64,000 bases of DNA from Rhina ancylostomus (Eukaryota), in NCBI GenBank assembly GCA_030265395.1, contig JARFYF010000055.1, positions 20,338,896 to 20,402,895 on the forward strand, in the 5' to 3' direction. The translations under genes and the position numbers were made by a program. The notes beneath the pieces are model-generated. The model searched no databases and was not told the origin of the DNA. It worked only from the letters and a program-made list of their open reading frames with translations. This document shows, in pieces, positions 5,538 to 58,019 of the stretch (position 1 is its first letter; each line of letters opens with the position of its first letter).

Positions 5538-6729
5538 ATCAGAATCAGATTTATTATCACTGACATATGACGTGAAATTTGTTGTTTTGCAGCAGCAGTA
5601 CAGTAATAGTGCAACGAAAAAAGAAACAACAAGGCAGTGTTCATGGATCATTCAGAAATCTGATGGTGGAGGGGAAGAAGCTATTTGGGTATTCAGGCTC
5701 CTGTACCTCCTCCCTGATGGTAGTAATAAGAGGCCATGTCCCCAATGGTGAGGGTTCTTAATGAAAGAGGCTATCTTCTTGAGGCACCGCCTCTTGAAGA
5801 TGTCGATGGTGGGGAGGGTTGTGTCTGTGATGGAGCTGGCTGAGTCTATAACCCTCTGCAGCCTCTTGCAATTCTGTGCATTAGAGGCTCCATACCAGGC
5901 TGTGATGCAGCTGGTCAGGATGCTCTCCACCATACACCTATAGAAATTTGTAAGAATCTTTAGTGAATTACCAAATCTCCTCAAACTCCTAATGAAGGCG
6001 GCACACCAGTGGCTCTACTTTGTAATTGCATCGTTGTGTTGGGTCCAGGATAGATCCTCTGAGATTTGATGCCCAGGAACTTTAAGCTGCTCATCTTTCT
6101 ACCAATGACCCCTCAATAAGGGCTGGTGCGTGTTCTCCCAGCTTCCGCTTCCTGAAGTCCACAATCGGTTCCTTAGTCTTGCTGACATTGCATGCGAGGC
6201 TGTTGTTTCGACACCACTCAACCAGCCGATCTATCTCACTCCTGTACACCTCCTCATCGCCATGAAATTCTACCAACAACAGTGGTGTCATCAGTGAATT
6301 TATAGATGGTGTTTGAACCATGCTTAACCACACAGTCATCAGTGTAGAGAGAGTAGAGCAGTGGGTAAGCACACATCCTTGAGATGCGCCTGTTTTGATA
6401 GTCAGCGAGGAGATGTTATTACTGATCTGCACTGACCGTGGTCTCCCGAGAAGGAAGTCAAGAATCCAGTTGCAGATGGAGGAACAGATGCCCAGGTTTT
6501 GAAGCTTGCTTGGAATGGTAGTGTTGAACACTGAGCCGTAATCAATAAACAGCAGTATGTCTTGCAGTTGTCTAGGTACTCCAAAGCAAATTAGAGAGCC
6601 AATGAGATTGCGTCTGCTGTCGTCGTGTTGTAGTGGTAGGCAAAATACAGTGGGTCCAGGCCCTTGCTGAGGCAGCAATTAATTCTAGCCATAACCAATC
6701 TCTCGAAGCATTTCGTCACAGTAGATGTG
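5538..6729 (-). mobile_element. 5'-truncated Rex1/Babar-type non-LTR retrotransposon
   Basis: Broken ORFs [64 protein letters not shown] and FYRCMVESILTSCITAWYG. 3' tail with AATAAA and a (CTGATT)-like repeat at about 5538-5555. Confidence 0.85.
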
Positions 6730-11319: not shown

Positions 11320-11592
<273 letters not shown>

Positions 11593-37110: not shown

Positions 37111-40100
37111 TAAGGCCAGAGGAGAATGTTTCACTGATCCTTTGACTTAAACTACAGTGAGACCAAACTTGAAGGCTGATTACAATCAGATGGGAGTTCT
37201 TAAAACTTATTCAAAAAAATTAATAATTGAAAATAAACTAACTTGTAGTGTTTTCAGGTTAATGCTTTTCTGCTTTGCCTATAGGAAAGAATTGCATGGA
37301 TTATAACCTATTCATTATTACATCAAATTTTATTAGAGGAAAAAAATCAGGTCTAAATGACTCTGGGTCAGTACATGTGTATTTATAATCTGTAATTTTG
37401 TACCTAATCCAGTAAAGGTAAATAGAGATTATCTCTAAAAGAAGTATTTACTTCAGTATTAAAAATCAAATTGATCAAGATCCAGCTATAAACAATTTGG
37501 CTGGAAGTAGGCTTGTTAGTATATCCATTCTCTTATTGCCAGCACTAGAAATTAACTGTTGCCTCCAATGGAGTGTTCGTTGGCCCCTCTACTGCACACC
37601 AAAAACCATTTTGGTCTTGGCCTGCAACATGGTAAACTGGTAGTGCCTGAGGCATCAGGCACCACTGGATGGGCCTTACATTAGGGAAGACCTTTCCTTC
37701 ACCATTATGTCAGACCAGGTCAGGGACATCCAGGATTTGGAGGGTTAAAGTAGGGGTGTCTGAGCTGGTGGTTCTGAATATGAAATCAGGTGTCGTACTT
37801 CAATATCACTGTCTTCTTGTTGTTCATTCACTACATAGGGTGCCCTTTCAATTGTAACCAGCACTGTCTTCTCCCTGCAGCTTGGGGCTGTTCACCCAAG
37901 CCCCATCAGCACCCCAGTTAGCTCCTGCTGACTTGTATCATGTGTCATCTTGATCTGCAAGAGAGTGAGTCATGTGTCAGCGAATAGTGCCAATCACATT
38001 TAGATAATTGGCTGTATTTATTGAATGGTTAAGCAGTGTTTGCAAATTGTGATGTAAGTATGAAGGCTGCAATAGTTCCAAGTACAGGATGCTTATGAAT
38101 GCTAGGCATGAATCCTAATTGATAAAGATTGCAGGTGAAGGATGGGTGTGCGGTGAAATGAGCAGTGACTGATATTAGTGGTTGCATTGCTGATATGTGA
38201 TAGTTGAAAGTGCATTCCCTGTGTTCAGTGTTGTGTGAATCCATTGTACTCTTTCTGGTTATGCGTCTAAGTCCTCGGAAATGTACTACTGGCAAAGATC
38301 TCTGTGGGCATCCACTACCACTGCCTTCTCATAAAAGATACCAGGGCATCTCTTTTCCCTTCCGTCCCTTCCACTTTCACCCCCAATTCCACACTTGAAA
38401 ACCTGGGTGCTAGCTCTCTCCCATGTTCCAAAATTTTTCTCTGTTTCCAAGGAAGGATTCAGCTACAANNNNNNNNNNNNNNNNNNNNNNNNNNNNNNNN
38501 NNNNNNNNNNNNNNNNNNNNNNNNNNNNNNNNNNNNNNNNNNNNNNNNNNNNNNNNNNNNNNNNNNNNGAACCATTTGCACCTGCTCCAGCCACAATCCC
38601 CCTACCATCTAAGCAGTGCAGGTTAGCCTGTCATACTGTTAGCAAAGCACAATTTTGGGACCCCTGCTGACTCGTGCAGCATATCAACAGCACAGCTAGC
38701 ACTGCCAACAGTCAGAAACCAGGAAAATGGCAGCACAAAAATCACATGCTGCATGAATTACATGGAACAGGTGTACAATTATTTTTAATCCTGATTTATT
38801 TAGCTGGATGTCTTTGTTGTTGAGCGCAAGACTCAAGTTCACACTGAAGGTGAAGGTTCCCAGAAGAGTTTGTATATTCATTTTGAAATATGTTTATAGT
38901 GATTGAGACTATTCACCAACAGAGTAGGAGAAGAATTTCTAAGTTATGCCACCTGTTCAGATTTCTGAAGTCACCTTTACTTGAAGCACTCTCTGCCAAT
39001 TGTGCAAAGTGTGAATGGGTATGAAATGTGCAGCTTCAGACTAACTGGTGTTAAAGAACAAACTTAGGGTACTGCTGCAAACTCAAGAGATGAGTTAAAG
39101 GTGCCAAAAGTTAATGGAAAATTATTGAATATTTTGTAATTACTGTGTTACAGTTTCAAATTCTCAATGAGATCCCAACACACATTCTGGTCTTGAATGT
39201 CATTCACTACTTGTCTCTGTGCGATGCCATTCTTGGCTTGGTTACCTAGGGCAGCTGGTACCTAGGGCTACCTAGAGGATGAGGAAAGAGTAAGCCTGAA
39301 AATTTATTAAGCAACCTAAGTGTGGTGTTAGCAGATTGAGCAACGGCATTTTCAGGATGCACTTTGGCAGCCAAGAAAAGTACACTTGGGAAGTTAACAT
39401 ACTGGGGATTTGGAAGGAGGAAAGGAAAAGCTCTCAAATATTTTAAGAAAAAATTGACTTTTCCATTTGCTTTTATTATGTAATGCAGGAACCTTGCAAC
39501 TACAGCAGAACATTTTTTGGATCCATAGAGAATTTGCCCTGTAATGTGGGTGGGAGCATATGCTCCAAAACACATAGAATCATGTTATTACATCTCTGGC
39601 TCTGTAATAAAAATTTAACTAAATGATCTGAGGAAGAGGAAAGCTATTACGCTGGTCTGATTGTACACACATTCTTGCAAAGATTTTTAAAGATATCAGA
39701 AGGATAAAATGGCAGGTAAGTCATACTCATATCCAGAGAAATAACATACTATAATCTACTGCTGCAGAAGGTTTGTACAGAACATTTGATTTCACAGAAT
39801 GTAAATGTAGAATATGAACTATCCTTGAATGTCCAAGGGCTGAACTCTCTATAACAACGAGCCCTCTGTGCATGAATGTCTTTCTCATAATCCTCTTTTG
39901 ATTATTAATTTATTCTGTTCCTTAATGTTCTCATGTGGTTACTTCTCCAAAACTATTAGCCATTTGAATGTAAGGAATAAGGCAGAATGGTTTTAGCAGA
40001 ATTGTTATTTTTAAGGTTTTAATTTTCTAAAACGTTTGTAGGGAGGATACATTTCTAAGTTTCCCTTTCTGCAACCTAGCTTACCATTCCCAGTATAAAA

Positions 40101-40784
40101 CTGCACATTTGCTAACCCAGGGCACCACTTAAAGCAGTCTGATTTCATGAGGAGAAAACCTGGGATTTGGAAACAAATTATTTGCATCAGGGTGTTTCCA
40201 GGAATGTGCCCACGTGGCTCTTCTCGTGTTGCTGGATTCCTCTAATGTGACTTTATTTACTTCAGTATTGATACTTCTATCAACGTGCTCCCTCCCAGGT
40301 CATAATGATTGTTAAATATATTTTTTTATGAGACTCCAAGTCTGTCTCTATGAATTAACCTACAGAAGAAGATTTTTTTCTATCTTAACTACAGTTCAAA
40401 ACCGTTCAGAAGTCGACCTCCTTGAAGCATTGTGCAATGCTTGAGATTGTTCTTTCTCGTCTTTCTTTAAAACTGCAGTTTAACTTTAACCCATTCACCA
40501 CCATCCATATTCAGTTAGGGTTGAATAAAATGTCCCCTAAAAGAACATTATCTGAAATCAGCCTTAGGATAGATAATTCAGGCAATAATGTCAGAGAAAT
40601 TCTGGTCTTGAATGCATCAAATTCCTCTGTCGGTTATTATGACCAAGATGTTAATCAGTTCAGAATAAATGAGGTAAAAACACTTTTGCACAGCAGAAAA
40701 TGCAATCTGATACAAGAAATTATTGTACAATAATAAGCCATATGAAACTTCCAAACTAAATTGTTCATGTTTTTCATGAGACAT

Positions 40785-40880
40785 TTTGTTCCTAACTCTG
40801 ATGGAACAGAGCATATTCCGGCATTTATGCCAACCCGTATTCCAAACTTGTTATTCAATGGTTCTTCAGGGATTGCGGTC
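40785..40880 (+). other. gyrA: Bacterial DNA gyrase subunit A-like coding fragment at a contig end (probable contaminant)
   Basis: Translates [32 protein letters not shown], matching the gammaproteobacterial GyrA motif [38 protein letters not shown]. Runs directly into the N gap. Confidence 0.85.
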
Positions 40881-42329
40881 NNNNNNNNNNNNNNNNNNNN
40901 NNNNNNNNNNNNNNNNNNNNNNNNNNNNNNNNNNNNNNNNNNNNNNNNNNNNNNNNNNNNNNNNNNNNNNNNNNNNNNNNNNNNNNNNNNNNNNNNNNNN
41001 NNNNNNNNNNNNNNNNNNNNNNNNNNNNNNNNNNNNNNNNNNNNNNNNNNNNNNNNNNNNNNNNNNNNNNNNNNNNNNNNNNNNNNNNNNNNNNNNNNNN
41101 NNNNNNNNNNNNNNNNNNNNNNNNNNNNNNNNNNNNNNNNNNNNNNNNNNNNNNNNNNNNNNNNTTGTTTTAATTCCACGTTGAGACACAAGAGGCTACC
41201 CAGATCCACCTACCACTTACCAGCTCTTTGCCCACCTCTCCCCCTAACCTCCTTATACTGGCTATGTTCCCTCTACTCTTTCTGTCCACACTGAAAGGTC
41301 TCGATCCAAAACGTTAACAGTCCATTTCCCTCTATAGATGCTGTCTGAGCCACTGAGTTCCTCCAGCAGCTTCTGTTTTGCTCCAATTCCCTGTTGCAAT
41401 TTCTTTGGGGAATGTATTTACTTTATTTCATGACTCCAAAAGTTAGTGAATCATTCTGTAGGTTACATTTATCTAGAAATTTTTTACCTTATGCTTGATT
41501 GTTGGGGGTCCCATCTTTCAGTAGAAACAATAAAACTAAATCTTCTGCCTATGTCAGTGGATCCAAAGCGCCATTCACCAAAGCAGGTTGGCTGGTCATT
41601 TATATCTTTGGCTGTATGTGAGAATTGCCATGCACAACTTGGCAGCTTCAATCACGTACAGAATGCTATATTACAACCATGATTAATTCATGTGGAATGT
41701 CTGCAGATATGAAAGGTAGCATGTATTCAGGGCATATTCTTTCTTTTTGCTCAGTTGTTCAATGGCCATTTCACTTGCTACTGTCATTTTCAACGATTAA
41801 ACCATGTATTCAGCTCCCTTGGATTCTAGTTGTTAAGTATTTGACAAAAATGTTAAAGACTATTTATAATTTTAAAGCATATAGTTGAGAATAGTTAACT
41901 AACTTTAAATCCTGCATTCAGAGTTTTACCTTTAGGGGAGACTAAGTTAATATTACAGCTAATCTCTATTGTATCAGCATCATGCTGTTGGACTTGGCTT
42001 CTTCAAACACAATGAGGGAACTTCCATTCAATACCAATTCTCCAGTCTCACTTTCATCAGCATATCCGGTAGTCATCATGTAGAATAATTTTCCACTTGC
42101 ATTCACATTGGAGCTGATAAACTATTGCTTCTGGAGTCAGAATTGTCTAATGGGCAAGAAGAGGAAGAGCACAGGGAATTACTGGCTGAAAATGCCCATT
42201 GTACCTTTCTGGGCCACAAGTGTACCTAAGGTGCAGGATTGATTGTTACAAAAGTGGGCTGTTTCATCTTGCATACTACAGTCTTGTTTCTGTGAATGTG
42301 CAGTTTCTCCAACCATATGTTCTAATTGC

Positions 42330-42495
42330 ATTATTGGAAGTAAATGAATTTTATTTGTGAGGCCTTGCCATGTGTAAGTTGGTTGCTGCAATTCCCTCCA
42401 ATACATCAGTGAGTGCACTTCAGAGCATTTCAATGGCAGTAAAGTGATTTCTGATGGCCTGAGGTTCTGAAGGGCGTTATATCAATCCAAGTTAT
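42330..42495 (+). mobile_element. Deu-SINE/L2-type 3' tail fragment
   Basis: ccttgccatgtgtaagttggttgctgc...ctgaggttctgaagggcgttatatcaatccaagtt, similar to 31560-31695. Confidence 0.5.
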
Positions 42496-44640
42496 TTCCT
42501 CATTCCTCCCTTCCTTTTAACCACTTCCCAACTATGCCTTTAAGCATTTTCTGGCATTTAGATCAGAGGACCCTCAACCAGTTGTTTAACTTTTCACGCC
42601 TAACAATCAGAAACAGCTGTAGAAAATTTCCCTTTTGTCTTCTTTATTTAATATTACAGGATTCCCTTCTGAAAAACTATGACAAAAATACCAGAGCACA
42701 GATATGCCATTTTGGCAGATGCATCCAACCCATTTCTTCCCAGTACTTCATTTCTAGCCACAATCTTCAAAAGGTAAGAATGGAATGACACTTGCAGCAA
42801 TTTTCTTAAATCTACTGCAGCCCAGAATTAGAAGTTTACAGTTTAAATATTCCTAAATAAGAATGAGAGGTATGTGCAAATTTGTGATCTCCTCCCCAGT
42901 GTCCCTTCACCATTTTAAGGGCCAAAGATTCCCATGCATTTTCAAGCAACCTTTGAGACCATCACAATATATTACCTGGTGTCAAACGTATGAACAATGT
43001 TGCCTGCCCATAGGAGCCAGCTGAGTGTAATTAAGGATCTTGGTCTGAGAGAGGATCCTGAGATTGGTTTACTTATCCTGCCAGTGAATTTGGAGGATTT
43101 TGTGGAGTTAGCTTTGGTATCAACACCAAAGCAGCATCAGTTTTCCAAAAGGAAAATATTCATTATCAACTAGTCAATCTAGTGTGCATCTTAAAGAGCA
43201 AATACTTCCAACTTCAATAGCTTTTGCAATTGGGGAAAGAGGGATAGCTTGTAATTATTTTGTCAATTTTTAAGCTTGGAACAGACTTCCATTGACTCAG
43301 CATCACAAATACCTGAGCTGATCCTCCTGCGGTCCTTTCGGATTATTTGATTTATAAGAATCAAGGAAGTTTCAAAAGTGCTGGGATACATAAGCCCAGA
43401 AATGGTGTGAATTCCACATTCTTGATTCCAATTCCTCAATGGAATGGCAGCAAAGCAGAAATAATATTCCTTAACGTACATTTTTGTTTGATGGACTGGA
43501 TGGTGTTTTACTTTCAAGTCATTTGCTCAAGCAGTCAGGTCAGTTTTTGTCCCATGTATTTGTACCTTAAGGCAGCCCTTGATTGATTGTTCCTTAAGTC
43601 TAATGGACACCATTGGAATGTTACAATCAACCCAAATATGAAATACAAGGGCTGCGCTTTCCCAGATGGGTTAGACAATGAAGCAACAGTAAGGTGGAAT
43701 AGCACAGTCATTTTGTGGTATTTATCTGATCGGCATAATTAAGCAATGTGTTGTTTTAGGTTAAAAAGGAATATCAGTGCAGGAATGGGATGGGAAGGCA
43801 TGTTCTGCCCAGAATTGAAGTAGAAATTGCATGGGGAAACAATGTAACACGACTTTCACAAATGGAAGGTCTCATGCTCTGTCCATTTTACAGCCCAGTG
43901 TTTTTGTTTGGCAAAATCATTTGACCCATCATTTTTGCTATCTTTTGTTCTTTAGTTTAGGAAAATCAATTACAAGGTAGAGAACCGTGTTACCCTGTCC
44001 TGGTTATTCCATATGGAACAGTGGGATATGTCCATTAGCTGCAAAGGGAAACTTCTACCTTAAAGTTAATGGATTGCTCCTATCATAAGATACTGTCACA
44101 TCTTGTAGCATTGTTTGTACCATGCTCACAGTTCAATTGATGACAACTGTCTACAACAATTAAATGTTGTGTTTACTTGAAGCTCCATGTCTAAATGATT
44201 GAATATGTGTCAGTGATGGTCAACTGTAAAGACCACTTTAGGAGAACCTACAAAATACTAACTAGCGACAGGGGAAGGATCTCTGGAAATGCCTTCCTGC
44301 AGGAAGTAATACTGGGTGAGTTTGACCAACAGATAATGAAGAATTTCTGCTGCATTGTGCTGTGTTTAATTGACGTGACTGCTGCTACTGTCAGACTCTT
44401 AAAAAACGAATGCTGTAAGTCCCATCACCTGATGGAAAATCCAAGTCCTTTCCAAAAAGCAGTGTTATTCAATCAAAGTGAGCATTGTAATTTTAGCACT
44501 GTTTANNNNNNNNNNNNNNNNNNNNNNNNNNNNNNNNNNNNNNNNNNNNNNNNNNNNNNNNNNNNNNNNNNNNNNNNNNNNNNNNNNNNNNNNNNNNNNN
44601 NNNNNGCATTGTAATTTTAGCACTGATTAAATTATTTTCC

Positions 44641-45498
44641 TTTATTAACAAGACAGATTGTGAGGAAATTTAAAGCACAAAAATGGGTTCAATTTAAAAC
44701 TTTTTTTGCAGGGTGTTTGGGGTGGGAGAGAATAGGTTACAAAATCTTACAAAGTCCTGATAACCAAGTTTTCATTACATGAAAGAAACATATAATAGAA
44801 TTGTTCTGTATAGCAGCACAATTTATTCAACAATTTATGAAACACTCTAGACAAACAAATTAAGAGATTTATAACCTCATACCTCACACGCCACCGTTTC
44901 AAAATATGGTTCAGGAACACATTCACAAATATTCCTCTGTGCATCACTTCCACAAGAAAATACAATGACCTTTACACAGATACTGCAAATCTGCCCTTAT
45001 CCTGTCCCTGAAACCTCAAGTTTAAAAAAAATCTAAAAGCAAAGTCTTCATCTCCTATCACTCACAGCAGAAAAACCAGGTCAGCAGATAAATAGCTTGC
45101 ACGGGTCTATTTAAAGTTCCCATTTAATTACACATAAATAAATATATACATGTGGAACACTATTTGATTGCTCTGCTGAGGCTGTTGCTCCAAGCTTGTG
45201 CTTTATTAATGTCTTGCCATATTAATGTTCCCAAATTCTGATCAATTGTCCCAAGATAACTCAATGTGCGTGCCATTGATTGAGACAAGCCTGGGTTCAG
45301 GCCTTATTCGATCCCGATAAAACCAGGCTAACTCTTTACTCCTTTCTCGCCTCAATTAGAAAGTTGTCACTGCGCAGCCACCTCAACACAATCCTCCTGA
45401 TGATTATTTTATTTGTCCTTTGTTATTAATTGCACGTTGAATGACTGTTTAATCTCTTTGATAATTAGAACAGTTTGGTCCGTGCCATCTGTCCCCGG
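44641..45498 (-). other. Probable TFAP2E 3' UTR with candidate AATAAA signals (45202-45207, 44822-44827, 44641-44646 on minus)
   Basis: Repeat-free sequence after the stop codon with three minus-strand AATAAA hexamers. The true end cannot be determined from sequence. Confidence 0.5.
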
Positions 45499-45790
45499 TT
45501 ATTTCCGATGTTTGGCCTCTTTGTCTGTGCTTTTAGTCCCGGATTCCCCCGAGGGATGGCTGTTGGATGAGCTCAGGAACATCTTATCCAGCCCCTTTAT
45601 AGCCTCCACCAGGTAATTCTGGAAGGCAGTTAATGCCGCAATGATGGCAGGACTCCCGAAGCCATGTGTAATCAGGCTGAAGTGAGTCAAGCAGCTCTGG
45701 ACTCCAGCTTCAAGGATTGCTGTGGGGCGGCTGTTTCCTAATGGAGACCGGTCCTGAGCTAATAAATCTGTGAACTCTTTACAGATCTGC
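45499..45790 (-). CDS. TFAP2E: Transcription factor AP-2 epsilon, last coding exon (helix-span-helix C-terminus)
   Basis: Minus strand ttccttccttttccag|G CAG ATC TGT... gives [74 protein letters not shown]...EAKHRK*. The GLDKMFLSS and AKHRK motifs plus adjacency to PSMB2 favour the epsilon paralog. Confidence 0.92.
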
Positions 45791-45969
45791 CTGGAAAAGG
45801 AAGGAAATGGGAACAGTAAATGTTGGGTGTTGCTCATATTTGGTTTGAACAATTTCTGCAAAAGTAAAACTTGAGTGTTTCAAATAATTCCTTGACTATT
45901 TTAAATAAGCCATTAATATATAATATTAGTACCTATATCGTCATGCTTTTCTCTACAGTATTTAACATA

Positions 45970-46280
45970 CAGGGCTAGTATCCAGAAGCCCAAACTAATG
46001 ACTCCAAGATGTGAATTCAAATCATACCACAGCAGCTAGAAAATTCAAATTCAAGTCATTAAATAAATTTAGTATGGAACTCTTATATTAGTAATGGAAG
46101 ACCTGCCAACCTTATCCAGTCTGGCCTCAGCGTGACTCCAGGCCTACCATCAAGGTTGATTCCAGATTGAATCAACTCCAAGAGTCTACCAAGCTACTCA
46201 GTTCTGGAGTCAAGTTAGGAGTGGACAATGAATGCTGACTTTGCCAGTAACATCCACATCTTTTGAATGGATAAAAGAAA
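45970..46280 (+). mobile_element. tRNA-head SINE-like element with LINE-derived tail
   Basis: tccagaagccc...gaattcaaatcataccacagcagct...ccttatccagtctggcct..gtgactccag...aatgctgactttgccag...cacatc...A-rich end. Confidence 0.55.
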
Positions 46281-47169
46281 ACAGGCACAATTTTGTTTAT
46301 TATATTCATTAAATATTGTAGGTGTCTGAATCCTACGCCTCTGTTCACTTCACTTTTCACCATAGAAAGCATGCCACCCTTTAAGTTGTTACAATGAACT
46401 GTGAATGACATGCGAGTTTGAAAACTAGTGGCATTGAAGGAGAAATGTCTAGCATCATTGAGGGACCTGAATCAACAACAGCCAGTGAATCCATTGTCTA
46501 ACAATATTAAATCAGCACAAGAGTGGACCATTCTCCTTTCACCAATGAACCATTGAGGCCAATTTTCCTCTTCTCAAACTTCCATGGTGTGCCAATTCCT
46601 AGGGTATTAATCAGGAAAAATCAACTCGTATGACTGTGTCTCCAGCCTTTTAGCTCTTCTATCAGCTTCCTGGAGAAGCTCATGGCTCCCAGCATAGAAA
46701 ATTGTTTGTAAATGTCGATAAAGCTGTAGCATCTTGCTTCCCTTGTCATTTTCTACAAATTCCTTGAAGCAGCTCTCTGGATCTCCACCAGAAGCCATAC
46801 AAGCAGCCAACAGCCATATAGGCCTCTCTTTATGTCTAGGGTTGTCCTGAAGGATTGGAGACTATTTGGTTGCCATTCTCCACAGCTGTTACCAGATCAA
46901 TAAAAGACAATGGAAATTCAAGCTGTGGACTGCCTGTAAGGCCTAGGACATAACTTTTTTTCCACAGTTAGACCATACAGCAGGCTATTTAAGGGAGTTG
47001 ATCTCAGAAATCTTAACTATCACTGAAACACACATTTATAGAAAACACAGCAGTTGACTTATGGCCATAATATATACATCAACTCAGTGACTCCTTAGTC
47101 ATAGGCCAAAGTAATTACTTTGGTACTCATTTTTAAAAGCTTATAAAATTTAACAAAATTAAGGAAAAT

Positions 47170-48078
47170 CATGTAAAACTGCAGATGGCATGAAAATTGG
47201 TGGTGTTGTTGATAGTGAGGAGAGTAATTGATCTGGTAATTTGGGCAGAGCTAGTCATTTGGGCTAAGAAATGGCAGATGGAATTTAATGCCAGATAAGT
47301 GAGAGGTGACATGTTTAAGGGATCTAATAAGGTGGGGCATATACTGTGTATGGTGGCATTGTAAGGAGTGATGAGGAACAAAGGGATGTTGTACAAGTCC
47401 AAAGATCCCTGAAGGTGGCAGCACAGGTAGATATGATAGCACAGATGGCAGCACAGATAGGATAGTGAAGAAGCCATACAGGATGCTTGCCTTCATTAGC
47501 TGGGGCACAGAATACAAATGCGGGGAGGTCTTGGAATATAGCTGGAATATTTTGTGCAGTTCTGATCGCAACATTATAGGAAGGATGTGATTGCACTAGT
47601 GAGGGTGGAGAGGCAATTCACCGGGATTTTGCCTGGGATGAAATGTTTCAGTCATGAGGAGAGACTGGATAGGATGGATTTGTTTTCCTTGGAGTGGAGG
47701 AGGCTGAGGAAGAACCTGACAGAGGTATACAAAATGCATAGATAAGATACATAGTAAGAAACCTTTCCATCTTAGCACAATGTTTAAGACCAGAGGACAT
47801 AAGTATAACATGCAGAGTAAAAGGTTTACAGGGGATCTAAGGAAGAATTTCTTTCACTCAGAGGGTAAGTGAAGTCTGGACAGAATGCCTGAGAAGAGGT
47901 GAAGGAAGGTACTCTCACAATATTTAAAAAGCATCTGGACAAGCATTTGAATCTGCAAGGCATAGTAGACTATGAACCAAGTGCTGGTAAGTGGGATAGG
48001 TAGGTACTTGATGGTAGGCATTAAAACGGTGGGTCAAAATGCCTGCTATTGTGCTGTATGACTATATGACTGTTCTAT
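47170..48078 (+). mobile_element. CR1 LINE, 5'-truncated
   Basis: Decayed (F)AD..KIGG, WAKKWQMEFN..K and QFW/ERV/RRFTGILPG motifs, ending in a (ctatga)n-like tail. Confidence 0.85.
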
Positions 48079-50031
48079 GCCTCTTCAATTTTTTTTGCTT
48101 TTAGATTTTAACGGTATATGGGAAAATTGAAATGAGCCATCAGTCTTTTAAAGTCCCATTTTATTATTTTTACCCCTTTTTTTGCAATGTCTTTCTAAAA
48201 TTCCAGTTATATTTCTTGCAATCTTGTGCCCAGTTAGAAGTTATTAATATAAGAAGCATCCACTTGTAGGCTAAGTAAATTATCAGATTTGTCTATGTTT
48301 GCAGTTACTGCCCTGGCAATCAAGTACTGCCCAGTTGTACCCTGCAGTAAGTCTTTCTATTCAAATTAATTCCCCTGGAGCTGATCCTTCTATGGATGGA
48401 CAGCTCTATCAACTGCTTTGTTCCTGTTTACAATAAAAAAAGAGTGAAGTCTTTCATCCCAAGGATGGAAATCACAATTTAACTTCTAGTCCACTACATT
48501 GTGTTACAGCATCAGTCTATTTGGACAAGGAAGCCTAAGTCTAACACTGGCTGGGTACCCAAAACTAGACATGGGTCTAGATGGTGAACCAAGCAAACAA
48601 TAGTAGCTACTGCTCATCAAGGGAACAGATCAGAGGGGGATGGGTTGGGCTGTTCAAACAGACAGCTGAACAAGGCCCTAAGCCTGGAAACAGCTGCCAG
48701 TTTGATGCCCCGAAGGTACTGTGTGCACTTGTGTCACACGGAAAAATAATGAAAAATTTTGGGAAGCAAATCAAAACAACCAAAAGAAAATGGCCAGAAT
48801 AAAATATGGGCAAGCTTAGGATGGATTAGAACAGAAACAGTGCTCCTGTTGTAAAGTGCAGGGATCATCTGAACAAGCTCCTCTTTAAATGAGTTTTACC
48901 CTGCTCACAATACCCATAGGATATGGAAACAAAATGTGGAATAATTATAGGCTACGTACTATAACAGATACAAATGTCTGGCTGTGAGTTACTAAGCAGT
49001 GATTCAATTAGGAAGTTCTGATGTCACCATATACCACAAGAGTAACATGGATCATGAACCTCAGAAGAATCACAAGATTCAATGGCTACGTGATGTTTAA
49101 CACCAAACAATTGAAATATAATCTACAATTATTTCAGATTTGACATTTCAAGACACTGCCGTGGTCTCACTAAGCACAGTAAATGTGGAATGATATTGAT
49201 TAGGAAGTGATGAAGGTGGGAAGAATTGAAGATTTGAAAGCAGGCAGTGACATGTGATGCTGCACTGTGACTTCACAGCAGCACACTGTAGGGACCACAG
49301 ACCACACTAAAATACATACTATGAGGTATTAATGTATTATGATTTACAACAATGCATATTTGCTCATTGACCTCACATGAGGGTCATGGGTAATATGAGA
49401 TCCAAAGCAATACTCATCTGCTAAGGCAAATCTACCCATAAATCAAAAATAAAGACAGGAAGCTGGAAATATACAGCAGGTCTGGCAGTATCAAGTCAAT
49501 GAGTTTTCTGATGGAAAGTTATCAACCTGAAATATTTCTCTCCACAGATACCGACTGACCTGCTGCATATTTCCAGCATTCTCTATTTTCACTTCAGATT
49601 TCCAGCATCTGCAGGTTTTTTTTTTGCTTCTTGACTACAGCCTATTTCCTTAAGGTCTCTATTCATACTGGGAGGGACATCCATAGGCATGCACTGGAGT
49701 CATTTGGAAGCTAAACACTGGAAAAAGTTCTCCAGTGTAACAGCCACCACTTATAAATTTGTGGCTTCAACACTCACAGAGTCCAGATTATCAGAATCTG
49801 ATAACTCAGCAAGAAGTGGATCATCTTCTTCTTATTCTTCATTTGCATACCTTGGTGCAACAGGAGAAATAAAACAACCAATATACAACCTGCGAATAGA
49901 CTTTTAAGTATAAAAGGTTTAATTGTTAAGTAAACAAAGCCTCAGGCCAGTCAGCTAGTTAATTAGTGTTTGGTCAGCAATTCATAATACAAAACGGAAG
50001 TGTGGGATCTATAAATCACCACCCTTTATCT

Positions 50032-50033
<2 letters not shown>

Positions 50034-50075
<42 letters not shown>
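50034..50075. repeat. (CT)n microsatellite
   Basis: Directly visible run of about 21 CT units. Confidence 0.95.
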
Positions 50076-50077
<2 letters not shown>

Positions 50078-51989
50078 TGATCTCTTTAAATCAGAACAAA
50101 AGGCTGAATATAATTTTGATATAAAGCTCACAACAAAGTTCCTTAATATATTTCACAAGTATTTAAGAATATAGTCTGAGAAATTATGCAATTTAATATT
50201 TGCACTGCCAAAATAAATACTTCTTTGAACAATGATGATTCACGATTTCTTAGCAGAAACCAATGAAGCTCAGGTGGTGCATTCACTACATTTCACACTC
50301 TGAATTAAAAATGAAGCTGTTAAAATTCATTCTCCAGCTTCTTTTCCCTCAACATTCAAATAAACAAAGAAAACCAATTGCAGGATGAGGAAAGACACAC
50401 TTCCACTAAGAAAATCATACTAATGCTAGGAAATTCTTCACACTGTGCTAGGATTGTAACATCATGGGAATCACAGGCACAGATGTAGTTGGATTAATAG
50501 ATTGATTAATAGAGTGAGAGCTTAGGGAAAAATATCAGCAGCAAAGCCCTGATATTCGACAGAGGCTGAAGTTCCTGAATTAAATCTGGAACTCTAAAGC
50601 ACTAAAGACAATTTTATAGCTAACCTTGAGTATAATATTGGGAAATATGCAATTTTAAAAAAGGTTTTTAAAACACCAGAAATTTTGAGCCCACAACCCT
50701 GTAGCATAAACAAGTTAACAAATGATGGTGTAAGAATTGCTGCTTCATACTCTGGAGAGGTTTATATTTTACTATTTTTGATTAGAATCTTCTGACTTAC
50801 TATTTAAACCTGGTTGGTTTCATAAATTCTATATCACTGCATACTACGTATTGCTTAATCCAAAATAGTTTAAGTGTTGCTTTACTATATGCCAGGTAGC
50901 AGAGAGTGTTTTGGTCATTCAGAATATTGTGCTCGGGGTTGAAAGGAGCGGGGGTGGGTCCTATCATGATCTCCCTACTGCAAGAGCTTCAGAAATTAAT
51001 CAAGTCACAATTAAGTTTCTTCCACACAGGAAGGTTGGGGATTTGACAGGTGGGGAAAGCTGCCCAGAAACTCATGTCAGTGCATTGTACTCTACTTCTA
51101 AATTGAAATAAAGGGAATGAATTTCAGGGGCAGAGTACAATGCTGAAACCTGATTATACAGAACATTTAGCAATACTGACTGACTGGGGATGAATTTCTA
51201 GCAGCTTCCACTAGTCTCTTTCATTGTTATTTTTCTTCCTGACATCTTTATAGTTTTCTGTAGATTCATCATTCACTTATCTGAAAATATTACTCGGGAA
51301 GTCATTCTTGATACCCACTTCCAGTCAGTCTTTCTAAATCCAAGTCAATCACGTGGATAGATGACATGTCAGATGGAGCCTAAATGCTCTTGGCTCCATT
51401 GAAACCAGTAATGGATCCCTGGGCAAAATTGCAGTACTCACCATTGCCTGGAGTGGCAACTTCCTTTTCAATGATTGTGTTAAACAACCTAGAAAGCTTC
51501 ACAGGGGAAAACACCACACTCCAGTGAAACCCAAATACTGTCATTTCTTGCCTAGTGCCTCTTACTAGCAGAGCTGTCAAATTGATGGTGACAGTAACAG
51601 GGATTCAATGCAACACCAACTGTATGAAATATTACAAAGGTTATTCTTCCAAGAAAATTTAATGATATCACAGTTCTAAGCCCTGTGGGTTCAAGGTTGT
51701 TGGCAGGTGTGCAAATTCCAGTTTAAACAAAATATACCCTGATGGCAATACTCGAAAAACATTACATCATGACCTATTAATTAACACCAGACAGGGAAAT
51801 TTGCCAGTTATTCCCCCATAAACACACGCACATCAGATACTACACTGACGTATCACCAGGACAAAATATCACTAACCTAGAGTCAATCCTGTAGGCAAAT
51901 AAAAACACACCAGGGTCTAAATGCAATAGCCCCTGAAAATCCACAAGGGAATTCAAGATGTGTAATCTACCTTTGCTCATTTAGTGTAA

Positions 51990-53868
51990 TGCTGGCAACA
52001 TGTAAGATTGTATTAAGTGCTGCCCCTCAGCAACATCTTCCGGAAGCACAGAATCAATTTCCACATGAGCATTGATGACATCTGCCTCACCACTACTTGA
52101 ACCCCTCCATTGTCTCTAAACCGCCTATCATACATACTCAATAGAACATAGAACAATACGGGACCTTCAGCCCACAACGTTATGCCGACTTATATAAACC
52201 TACTCTCTGATCAATCTAACCACTCCCTCCTACACAGCCCATAACCCTCTATTTTTCTTACATCCATGTCCTGATTTAAGAGTCTTTTAAATGTCTCTAT
52301 TGTATCAGCCACTACCACCACCCCCGGCAGTGCATTCCAGGCACCCACCACTCTCTGTGTAAAAAAACCTACATCTCCCCTAAATTTTCCTCCTCTGACC
52401 TTAAACTGATGTCCTCTGGTATTGGCCATTGCCACCCTGGGGAAAAGATGCTGGCTGTCCATTCCATCTATGCCCCTCATAACCTTATACACCTCTATCA
52501 AGTTGCCTTTCATCCTGCATCACTCCAAAGAGAAAAGCCCCAGTTTGCTCAACCTTTCTTCACAAGACATGTTCTCCAATCCAGGCAGCATCCTCATAAA
52601 TCTCCTCTGCACCCTCTCTAAATCTTCCACATCCTTCCTCTAATGAAGCGACCAGAACTGAACATAATCCTCTAAGTGTGGTTTAAGCAGAGTTTTATAG
52701 AGCTGCAACATTACCTCGTGGCTCTTGAACTCAATCCCCTGACTAATGAAGCCGAACACACCAAACGCCTTCTTAACCATCCTGTCAAATTGCACAGCAA
52801 CTTTGAAGGATCTATGGACTTGGACCCTAAGATCCCTGGGTTCCTCCACACTGCTAAGAATCCTGCTGTTAACCTTGTACTCCGCCTTCAAGTTCAATCT
52901 TCCAATGTGTATCACTTCACACTTTTCCAGTTTGAACTCCATCTGCCACTTCTCAGCCCAGCACTGCATCCTGTCCATATCCTGTTGTAACTTACGACAA
53001 CTTTCTACACTCTCCACAACACCACCAACCTTTGTGTCATCTGCAAACTTACTAATCCACCCCTTCACTTCTTATCCAAGTTATTTATAAAGATCACAAA
53101 GAGCAGGGGGTCCCAGACATATCACTTTGGAACACCACTAGTCACCGACCTCCAGGCAGAATACCCTCCATCTACTACCACCCTCTGCCTTCTGTGGGCA
53201 AGTCAATTCTAAATCAATGAACAAAACTTCCTCTGATTAAATATTGAGAGGCCTGAAACCATCACAAGCCCATTCTCTAACCAATTACTTCATCTTCCCT
53301 TATAACTTTCTGAATCTGAACCAAACTCTGCACAATCTTGGCATTATACTTGACCCCCTGATTACCTTTAGAGCACATATTTTCTGAGTCTCACAAACTC
53401 TGTTCATACCATAAAACCTACCAAATCTGATTCAACAGTCACTCTGTATTTTTTAACCCACAGCAGCTCCCAATTAAGCAACACCACACTTTTACAATTT
53501 GTTTGGCTGTTTTCAAATCTCCTCTCTTTATCTCTGTAATTTCCCAAGCCCTATAAATTTTCAAAATCTGCCTCTCTAGTTTCTGCCTCTTAGTTATCCA
53601 CAGCTGTAATCGCTATGTTGTTGCTGGCCATAGTTACAGCTTCCAAGCCCTAAGCTCTGGAATTCCTTCCCTAAATCTGTCTGCCTTTCCACCAGTTTTT
53701 CCTCCTTTTATAAGATTCCTGAAAATTAGTTCTTACACCAAACCTTTGGTATCAGTTCTAATATCTCCACATGTGGTTATGAGTTAAATTTTTGATTGAC
53801 ATTGTGATGAAATGCCTTGGGACATTTCACTATTTTTAAAAGCACAATAGAAATGGAAGTTATTGTTA
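51990..53868 (+). mobile_element. Old L2-type LINE remnant split by the CR1 insertion
   Basis: Left of the CR1: ttccacatg..attgatgac (FH.YADD-like). Right: aacttcctctgattaaat...gaaaccatc (NFL.LN..KTE-like), then the L2 3' end ccctaagctctggaattccttccct...tgccttgggacattt...aaatggaagttattgtt. Confidence 0.6.
52140..53215 (-). mobile_element. Relatively young CR1 LINE (RT C-terminal region plus 3' UTR)
   Basis: ORFs ISKFADDTKVGGVV...WAEKWQMEF...LYKTLLKPHLEDYVQFWS and GNLIEVYKVMRG...FFTQRVVGAWNALP, with an atagaacatagaac tail. Confidence 0.92.
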
Positions 53869-54914
53869 GAAGGCTTATAACATCCTTTAGTGTTTCAATA
53901 GGAAACTATAGAGTAAGTGGCTGCCTCCACGTAAAGCCAGCCTGCACTGTTTAAAGCCCTGTGAGGGTATGGGCTTCACTCTGTGGGATTGAGCTTGTTC
54001 TAGTAATTACAAATTTATTTTTGCAAATTAAAATAAAGTTCACAAACTCCACATCAATGTTGTTTTAAAGCTGGTGGGGTAGGTGTGTGGCCAGGTTCCT
54101 GAAGCTGATGAACAGTGAGCAGGTCCTTGCAGGTCAGGCAGGAAAATTGCTGCATGTATTGTGAGTGGCCTGGCATTGCAGAGCAGAGCAAAGCAGATAA
54201 TGCACTCAGTCAAAGGGCCAGGCCAGCTCAGACTGAGCCAGGATGGATCCTGCGGCCTCTTTTCCATTGTTGCTGTCATGGTTCTGGGTTCTGGCCCTCA
54301 ATTTGGCTCCTTTAATGCCTTGTTGTAGAGCACATGGATTCCATGCTGGACTGTTTGCATAATGACACGCACCTGAGCGCCATCAGGGGCCTAGCATAAG
54401 TACCTGGGTTTCTCTAGCACTAGTTGCCAGGGTATTGGTCAACCTTTGGGTATACTTTGGCTCCTGGCTGCTTAGTGGTCAACTCTAGAGCAGTCCTGTG
54501 TTCTGTTCCTTTTTGGATATCCAGTTCGTGCTGGGATTCCTCCTCAGGTCCCTGAGGCAAGATTCCTTCCAGTTGCTGCCCGTGTTTGGTCCTGAGGCAG
54601 TATCCTGACTCCAGTCCTATACCAGTGTGCTGCATTTGGGCTCTCTGTGAGCTTGCTCTTTGCTCAACATTGTGACACCACTACTGACCTTGTGATGGAA
54701 GAAAGATCACTGATGAAACAGCTGAAGCTGGCTGGCCCTGGGCCACTGTCTGAGGAACTCTGATCACTGTAATGATTAACCACCTCCAATTACAGGCATT
54801 GCTATTTGCATGAGGTAGCACTACAAGTATTGGAATGTTTTCCCCTTGATGCCCAGTGACGTTTCAGTTTCACCAGTGTTCCCTGATACCACACTCAGTC
54901 ACATCTGCCTAAAT

Positions 54915-55040
54915 TTCCTCTGGGTGCTCCGGTTTCCTCCAACATTCCAAAGATGTACGGGTAGGTAAATATGGGTTTAAGTTGGGCAGCACAGACTCGT
55001 TAGGCTGAACGGGCCTGTTACCACACTGTAAATAAAACTT
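54915..55040 (+). mobile_element. V-SINE (HE1-like) fragment inserted in a decayed LINE (about 54680-55420, minus)
   Basis: V-domain core gggtgctccggtttcctcc..cattccaaaga followed by a CR1-like tail ggctgaacgggcctgtt...ctgtaaataaaa. Confidence 0.7.
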
Positions 55041-58019
55041 CAAAAAATCTTTTTAAATTTTACCTCCCTTATGGATTTCAGCTCTTTGGTCTATGCTTCA
55101 ATCAAGACTGAGGTCTGGAGCCAAGTGATTCTGGAGAAACTCAAATTGAGCAGGTTCTTGGTGAGTTAGTGGGGCTTGGCAACACTGTCAACAATAGCTT
55201 CCCTCACTGTACTGATGACTGTTCAGTGAGTAATTAGCTGGACTGGATTTGCCCTTTCTGTGGACATATCTGGGAAAGTTTGCACCTTGTCGGTTAGATG
55301 CCGGTGTTGAAACTGTACTGGAATACCTTGAATACATCACAGCTAGTTCTGGAGTGCATATCTTCAGTACTGCAGCTGGGCTCTCATCTGGTCCCTCAGC
55401 CATTCCTTGGTATCACCTGGAGTAGGTAGATGATTGATAAATGTTCATGCACTTTAGAGGATTCCTTCTGGAACCAAACTACTAATTTGGTAAGTGAGAC
55501 ATTATTAAAAATCTTATTTAAAACCACTGGTGAGGAACAACTGAATTTAAACATTCATCATCTGGCTCAGATCTTCATTTCAAAACCATGGGCAATTGGA
55601 ATATGTTTGCTAATCTGGCTAAGTTACAGTATCTAAGAGGGACAGCTTCACCTGAACTTCATAGACCACAGATTGGCAGAGATATTTTGTACCTATCTTT
55701 TGAAAGCATTTAAACTCATTCAGAACAGGAACAGACTGGGTAGGTCATTGCATAAACTCTACACATGCAGTTAAATCTGTATGAATCATACATGATTAAA
55801 TCCAAGGTTGTCAAGACCTTTAAAATGCTTCTGTAAGTGCATGATTTTATTAAACAAGCTGCCAGTATTTCACACACAGTGAGACGGAAAAATTAACCAC
55901 TATTTCTGAAACATGGCAGATGAACTGAACAGATTGGCCTAAAAGGTTAACTTGTTAATTTCCGTTAAGATGACTGTGTCATCATTAATTACTCACAAGT
56001 GCTCCTTTAATACAATCCAGCAAACTAAATTTTAAAAATGTTGGGACTGCTTAATACACTAAATTAAAATTTGGTCCCAGTGATGGACTGTAGTATCCAC
56101 CTGAGTCATAGAGCACAGACAGGCTCTTCAGCCCACCATATCCATGCCCAGCATGTTGTGTAAGGTCATAAGTGGTGGGCAGTGTGTACTCTCATCCAAG
56201 GTGAGAGGTAGACAGTCAGGCCAAATAGCCCTCTTCTCAGTGGAGACACAACAGACTCTAGATACTGGAATCTGGAACATCAGACAATCTGCTGGAGGAA
56301 CTCAGCGGGTCGAGCAGCATCAGTGGGTGGGGATGAAAGAATTGTCCCTCTTAGTGACTGCCTGGACCTGTGGGTAACAATCATGGGCTGCAGCAATCCT
56401 GCCAGAAGGTCAACTGGCCTTCCTGCTCCTCTTGGCACCAGAGCATAGAACTGAAGGGCACCCCCTCCAAAAAGCAGGAGGTGAGCTGCAACACCTTGCT
56501 GTCCACAGACATGGACCACTGTCTCATCCAGAGAGCAGAAATGGTGAGCAGCCTTTTGGTGCACACTGAACCTATGATAAAGCACTGCTCTGCAATAGTA
56601 GTCCACGCCAGATCGCCAAGNNNNNNNNNNNNNNNNNNNNNNNNNNNNNNNNNNNNNNNNNNNNNNNNNNNNNNNNNNNNNNNNNNNNNNNNNNNNNNNN
56701 NNNNNNNNNNNNNNNNNNNNTCCTGACTCCAGTCTTGTATCAGTGTGCTGCATTTGGGTTCTCTGTGAGCTTGCTCTTTGCTCAACATTGTGACAGTTGC
56801 TGCCTCCTTTTGTGCTATGGTCGCTGTCCTCTCCTGCAGAACCACACTCATCCTTGTAAAAGGTACAATTAATAGTAGATGTAATACAAGGATGGAGTTT
56901 CACTCCGATTATGGCATTCCACTACTGGGAGTAGAATGCAATCTCATTTAATTCATTCACTCCTAAAATATTACACTGAATGAGCCCTCCACAGCTGCCT
57001 TGAGCCCATCTCTCTTATCACCACTACCACAGCCCCTGGCTCTCTGATGCTCTCTCTGGCCCACCAACTGCCTGGATCTCTGCCAACATGACTGGGAAGC
57101 CATTGGAGTCTTTCAGAGCTCTAGAGATTGTTGGACAAATGCCAGCCTTTATCTCCGACCCCGAATTCATTCCGCCCAGAGTGGGGACTTGTAAGTCAGG
57201 ACTATCCCAACTAAACAGTGACAGCAATTCTTAACCACAGTACTGTCCTCAGCCTCATCAATTTACCATCCCCTCCCTTCATTCACCTACCAACTCTCCC
57301 TATCCAGCATCAAAATGCTCCACCTCACTGTCACACACTTAAACCTGCTGTAGGCCTCGTACCCTGCTAGTTAACTGCTGCAGCCACTTCACACGAATAT
57401 ATTGGACAACAGTCACTGTTACATCCCTCTTTCTTTCTGGACAAGGAGAGAGGAGGAGGAAACTGGAGAAGGGGAGTCATTCATGCAAGTCCCAATCCCC
57501 ACAGGAAGGGACAGTGTTGGCCATCATCAAAACAGTCAATGTTGTGGTCCTGACCTAATGAGTGTCAGGGACAATCCATGATAACTGTATCTTCATTCTG
57601 AATTCTTGTGCTCAAAACCCACTTTCCATTCATCCCACAGAGTCTTCTGATTAAAGATCTGCAGACAACATAGGCAGCTCCTCTTCTTCCCCCCCCCCAC
57701 CAAACATCTCCCATTACCTCCCCTCCCACCACCCACCCCTCCCCATCCAACCCTCTAAGCCTTCCCACACAATTTTCATTTCAAATACCCAAGAACTGCA
57801 ATCTGGCATGATAATGTGGAAAGAAGAAGAGACATAAACAGATACCACCGCATCATTTCACACTTGCAGCCATGAGTTCAAACACTGACACTGATTGCCA
57901 CTTAGATTGCAGAAAGTCAGGATTTGCATGTGACATGGGACTTGGAGACTGTCCTTTCTAGTACATTGGCCAGCACATTGGAGTAGTTGTTCCAGTATGT
58001 TGGAGATGAACTCTTGGTC

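Follow-up and report, generated by a model that had tools for sequence, protein, structure and literature searches.

A Proteus myxofaciens-like gyrA segment at a gap edge of a vertebrate contig, very probably a contaminant joined through a chance 21-base overlap

How does a stretch of bacterial gyrA come to lie in a vertebrate contig, directly against an assembly gap? The window (the whole stretch of 64,000 nucleotides analyzed here) is vertebrate DNA, because it holds an exon resembling proteasome subunit beta type-2 (PSMB2-like; 11340-11510, + strand; E 1.8e-30 against solved chains) and the terminal exon of a gene for an AP-2 transcription factor (45499-45879, - strand; E 1.5e-41), and because it is depleted in CpG throughout (observed/expected 0.07-0.31). 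The gyrA piece sits between these two exons, and PSMB2 is, we presume, a neighbor of TFAP2E in other vertebrates.

The reading in question consists of 32 stop-free codons at 40785-40880 (+) and halts at a gap of 284 N (40881-41164); translation and gap coordinates agree on this, as an earlier note on the same DNA had described. That note assigned the reading to GyrA and placed it nearer to bacterial GyrA than to eukaryotic TOP2, and both assignments hold. The translation matches Pfam PF00521 (E 2.8e-7, profile positions 114-145 of 432), with a score of 30.2 bits that lies slightly below the whole-protein cut-off of 31. Among solved chains the best match is 3lpx_A (E 1.3e-12), and GyrA chains, with E-values of 1e-12 to 5e-9, precede the best ParC chain (1.9e-6); GyrA chains align with the 32 codons at residues 145-176 of the solved-chain numbering (E 4.4e-9). 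With the segment as query, this search listed 48 sequences at E <= 1, and eukaryotic TOP2 is not one of them. A TOP2 remnant was also considered as a candidate and rejected on these solved-chain matches. At the DNA level, the gyrA of P. myxofaciens matches over 40783-40880 (97%, E 3e-40), and thus begins two bases before the start at 40785 given earlier. Upstream of this position the likeness stops at once, with 36 of 45 bases differing from gyrA in the locus comparison. The match extends over 98 bases only, and no start codon, promoter or remainder of the gene was found with it. The catalytic tyrosine, which we take to be at about residue 122 of GyrA, would lie upstream, leaving the piece without the catalytic part. 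Judged by its sequence, the segment comes from a GyrA gene but does not amount to a gene.

The earlier note proposed finding the donor by sequence comparison, and this identifies a P. myxofaciens-like bacterium. A 27-base exact pattern from the segment matched eight stretches among 185,579 prokaryote species (one genome each), and all eight are titled Proteus. The gyrA locus of P. myxofaciens ATCC 19692 (NZ_LXEN01000025.1, hereafter L003) is identical at 95 of 98 bases over 40783-40880 and at 29 of 32 residues, and the remaining Proteus loci at 85-92 of 98 bases. At the third codon position the segment agrees with L003 in all 32 codons, as against three to eight differences for the other Proteus loci. 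Among 151 genomes of the family that were searched (27 matched), that of P. myxofaciens was best at 97%, followed by one at 91% and then 80%. Proteus mirabilis, the initial match, was rejected as donor at 85 of 98 bases. A 4.09-Mb P. mirabilis record that carries gyrA (L001, NZ_OL790812.1) is filed as a plasmid, although it is chromosome-like.

Nine sequencing runs hold parts of 39900-40880, all as assembled contigs, which can show the presence of a sequence and not its absence. Four of them (X8, X9, X1, and X7) were compared over 39000-40880, and X2-X6, with small shares, were left out. In X8, record 6 is the host flank over 39000-40728 (1,729 of 1,729 bases identical), and the run may be the window's own source sample and hence not independent. 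Record 7 of the same run is a separate contig of 4,583 bases that covers 40783-40880 with three differences, the same number as L003 and presumably the same ones (at least one T>G is among the differences listed). Before 40783 it carries a 30-letter loose end which, compared by eye, equals the upstream gyrA of L003 at 30 of 30 positions. Bacterial DNA therefore occurs in run X8 as a separate contig with its own flank. The depths of the two X8 contigs, 5.5 (bacterial) and 8.0 (host), are not to be read as a share of cells, and the length of the bacterial contig suggests that substantial bacterial DNA was present in the library.

X9 (study P5) and X1 (study P1) represent two other, related organisms from two studies, and so display the ancestral state rather than this individual's chromosome. 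X9 aligns with the window to 40803 and X1 to 40801, after which they continue for 335 and 519 more bases, respectively, of other letters; these loose ends start near-identical to each other and unlike gyrA. The comparison of related genomes at this site, which had likewise been proposed, thus finds no gyrA piece shared by the relatives. The X7 contigs stop short of the junction, those listed for X8 leave 40729-40782 uncovered, and neither hole counts as evidence. No listed contig of the four runs compared bridges the left junction, and on the right side lies the N gap.

Because the window is matched by X9 as far as 40803 and by X1 as far as 40801, while the bacterial contig of X8 matches from 40783, the host and bacterial sequences overlap at 40783-40803, and the first 19-21 bases of the gyrA match are host sequence. 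The overlap matches L003 at 20 of 21 bases, with 40798 as the sole mismatch; the letter at that position is likely a host base and not a read error. The locus is accordingly composed of the following features:

39000..40782, no strand: host flank of non-coding vertebrate DNA (equal to an X8 contig over 39000-40728; parts of it align, with substitutions, to contigs of X9, X1, and X7)
40783..40803, + strand: overlap, host sequence that differs from P. myxofaciens gyrA at one of its 21 bases (ends of X9 and X1, start of the X8 bacterial contig, comparison with L003)
40804..40880, + strand: purely bacterial part of 77 bases, P. myxofaciens-like gyrA (75 of 77 as in L003, both differences being T for G)
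40785..40880, + strand: 32-codon reading matching GyrA residues 145-176 (translation, PF00521, solved chains)
40881..41164, no strand: assembly gap of 284 N adjoining the bacterial letters (sequence composition)
41165..41400, no strand: resumed host sequence with no gyrA continuation (P. myxofaciens genome search; Pfam on gap-edge frames)

Is a 20-of-21 match between host and bacterium more than coincidence? When the other window positions (61,736, N included) were compared with the P. myxofaciens genome, 24 matches were listed at E up to 1, and 12 of these are 20-26 bases long at 95-100% identity, approximately one per 5 kb of window. For this particular 21-mer, 2.6-3.1e-4 chance matches with at most one mismatch are expected in 7.4 Mb. 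Chance matches of the size of the overlap occur about once per 3-5 kb of window, and the overlap is nothing beyond chance. Where an assembly has very many gap edges and every one of them is extended stepwise, such overlaps would be met many times. This match of 20 of 21 bases between host and gyrA is the likely cause of the join, and the earlier note overlooked it.

The same anatomy (a 20-of-21 overlap, the host base kept, a short piece, a gap edge, and the bacterium present in X8) also fits a chimeric library molecule, in which a host fragment ending at about 40803 was primed on or joined to contaminant gyrA during amplification and the resulting read entered the contig. Such a product would still be an artefact, made at the bench rather than by software. 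We consider it unlikely, since a partner of 21 bases would seldom be found among billions of library bases within a few cycles, whereas software searches all reads.

Three differences from L003 fall inside the match, at 40798, 40824, and 40854, and the window piece differs from all Proteus loci at three amino acids. Those within the bacterial-only part (40824 and 40854) are both T for G and both change Val to Phe, and there are no transitions. Across the loci, the first of the two altered codons encodes Val in 19 of 19, and the second Val in 18 of 19 and Ile in one. Changes of Val in an essential gene with no neighboring synonymous change would fit uncorrected errors of a single read, and both are likely sequencing errors. 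The earlier note had counted four error-like single-base changes. These two stand; the change of D to H (40782) involves a base outside the gyrA match, and that of Y to S (40798) lies within the part that the relatives identify as host, where the letter is likely the host's own.

The three amino-acid changes relative to all Proteus loci could also speak for an old horizontal transfer of gyrA that has since been decaying in the host genome, the alternative that the earlier note had put second. The signs of host-type neutral decay are absent, however: none of 32 third positions has changed from the type strain, no transition occurs, and all three CpGs in 40804-40880 are intact relative to L003 in a window in which CpG observed/expected is 0.07-0.31. 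The relatives X9 and X1, moreover, continue into other letters at the site. We regard an old transfer as almost negligible in probability, and the earlier suggestion of a decaying transfer does not survive these comparisons. The presence of several CpGs, which the earlier note had remarked on, is borne out by the count of three, but the count alone is a weak marker of foreign DNA, as 1,513 of the 62,444 77-base windows here (2.4%) have at least three.

A different genuine event would be that Proteus DNA entered the host chromosome very recently, in the individual or its lineage, when microhomology-mediated repair used the 21-base match; the gap would then conceal the remainder. A junction match of 20 of 21 bases is one that we take to be usable by such repair, and the junction comparison rests on contigs rather than on raw reads of this individual; if true, the assembly would have caught the left bacterium-to-vertebrate junction with the donor still in the sample. 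Against this, the gyrA stretch lies in X8 on a contig of its own that continues upstream as bacterial sequence, no gyrA letters appear beyond the gap, the piece ends exactly at the gap and is under one read length, and both differences are T for G at conserved Val codons. A recent insertion is, on this evidence, very improbable.

The remainder of the window was also searched for bacterial sequence. No P. myxofaciens match was found at E <= 0.001 in the host flank (39000-40782), none better than E 0.17 in 41165-56620, and, across the 61,736 other positions, none better than E 0.0049. At the right edge of the gap (from 41165), six stop-free frames of at least 25 amino acids gave no Pfam match; the stretch at 41280-41385 is repeat-like and, we presume, resembles the short interspersed repeats of sharks and rays. 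At the 14 gap edges of the window, 78 frames of at least 25 amino acids lie within 240 bases: one matches PF00521 (the gyrA piece), one weakly matches a retrotransposon peptidase, and the other 76 have no Pfam match, so that no further bacterial coding piece was found at these edges. The weak match (44267-44503, +; PF12382, E 0.0039, below cut-off) lies at the left edge of the gap starting at 44506. Across this 100-N gap (44506-44605), an identical 20-base word flanks both sides within 44482-44625, a sign of overlapping contig ends that were left unjoined. Elsewhere, broken frames at 5650-6680 (-) and 52210-53070 (-) resemble remnants of LINE reverse transcriptases by eye, and two of the LINE-like broken frames had no Pfam match at E <= 0.001.

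The reading that we prefer, and hold to be very probably correct, is that the segment is a P. myxofaciens-like gyrA contaminant which software joined to the end of a host contig because 21 bases happened to overlap. Contig extension or gap filling would have reached 40803 on host reads, and an extension step would then have accepted one contaminant read through the 21-base overlap, keeping the host base at 40798 inside it. The overhang of the bacterial read (40804-40880) would have been added with its two uncorrected errors, after which extension presumably halted and left a gap where the true host continuation belongs. This explanation is built on assembled contigs, from which the joining read itself is deduced, and we infer the software step from the anatomy of the junction. 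Two marks of a contaminant chimera are present, namely near-identity to a living microbe (95 of 98 bases, third positions unchanged) and donor DNA that stands by itself in the sequencing data, with flanks of its own (X8 record 7). The earlier note had favored a contaminant read joined at contig extension, and the separate bacterial contig of X8, together with the departure of the X9 and X1 orthologues at 40803 and 40801, bears it out.

The gyrA piece is an instance of a known assembly artefact. The Conterminator report describes contamination as "flanking regions on longer contigs" (PMC7218494), and the FCS-GX report includes a TRIM action and class for terminal chimeras (PMC10246020); as in the cases described there, the window has bacterial DNA that shares more than 90% identity with a species whose genome is sequenced, and this DNA terminates a long host contig beside Ns (PMC7218494; PMC10246020). 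It differs from them in that the joining overlap is itself visible in the window. The minimum given for Conterminator is 100 bases (PMC7218494), and the match in the window, at 98, falls just under it; this size, together with the position on a host contig, may be why a screen could miss the piece. According to the RegCloser report (PMC10265787), methods that close gaps tend to produce false overlaps and local mis-assemblies; it blames repeats and chimeric reads, whereas the present case would be one of a chance match to a contaminant. Microbial-like regions are reportedly widespread in eukaryotic references (PMC12491943), and the FCS-GX report names Wolbachia in insects and nematodes as bacterial integrants in animal genomes (PMC10246020). 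These resemble the window in having bacterial next to animal DNA, but here the donor is no demonstrated endosymbiont, neither a second junction nor decay is seen, and the relatives X9 and X1 are negative.

Compared with the gyrA of P. myxofaciens ATCC 19692, which it equals at every third codon position, the window piece has no start and no catalytic part, and of its three differences one is likely host-derived and the other two are likely read errors. Among the literature listings, nothing was found on P. myxofaciens in a vertebrate assembly, nothing relevant on horizontal transfer of bacterial gyrA into a vertebrate genome, and nothing on contaminant joining through a chance overlap.

For quality control, the locus provides a clean example of a contaminant of under 100 bases that was fused through a chance 21-base overlap and lies below the limit of one standard screen, as that limit is given in the Conterminator report (PMC7218494). 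Other parts of the assembly may contain further Proteus pieces joined in this way, and in view of the finding it would be sensible to mask 40804-40880 and to screen the assembly's gap edges for such pieces. For the biology of the animal the segment has no significance: it would be without function there, and the animal's genome very likely lacks it. Were the insertion true instead, bacterial DNA would have been caught in the act of entering a vertebrate chromosome, a rare direct observation.
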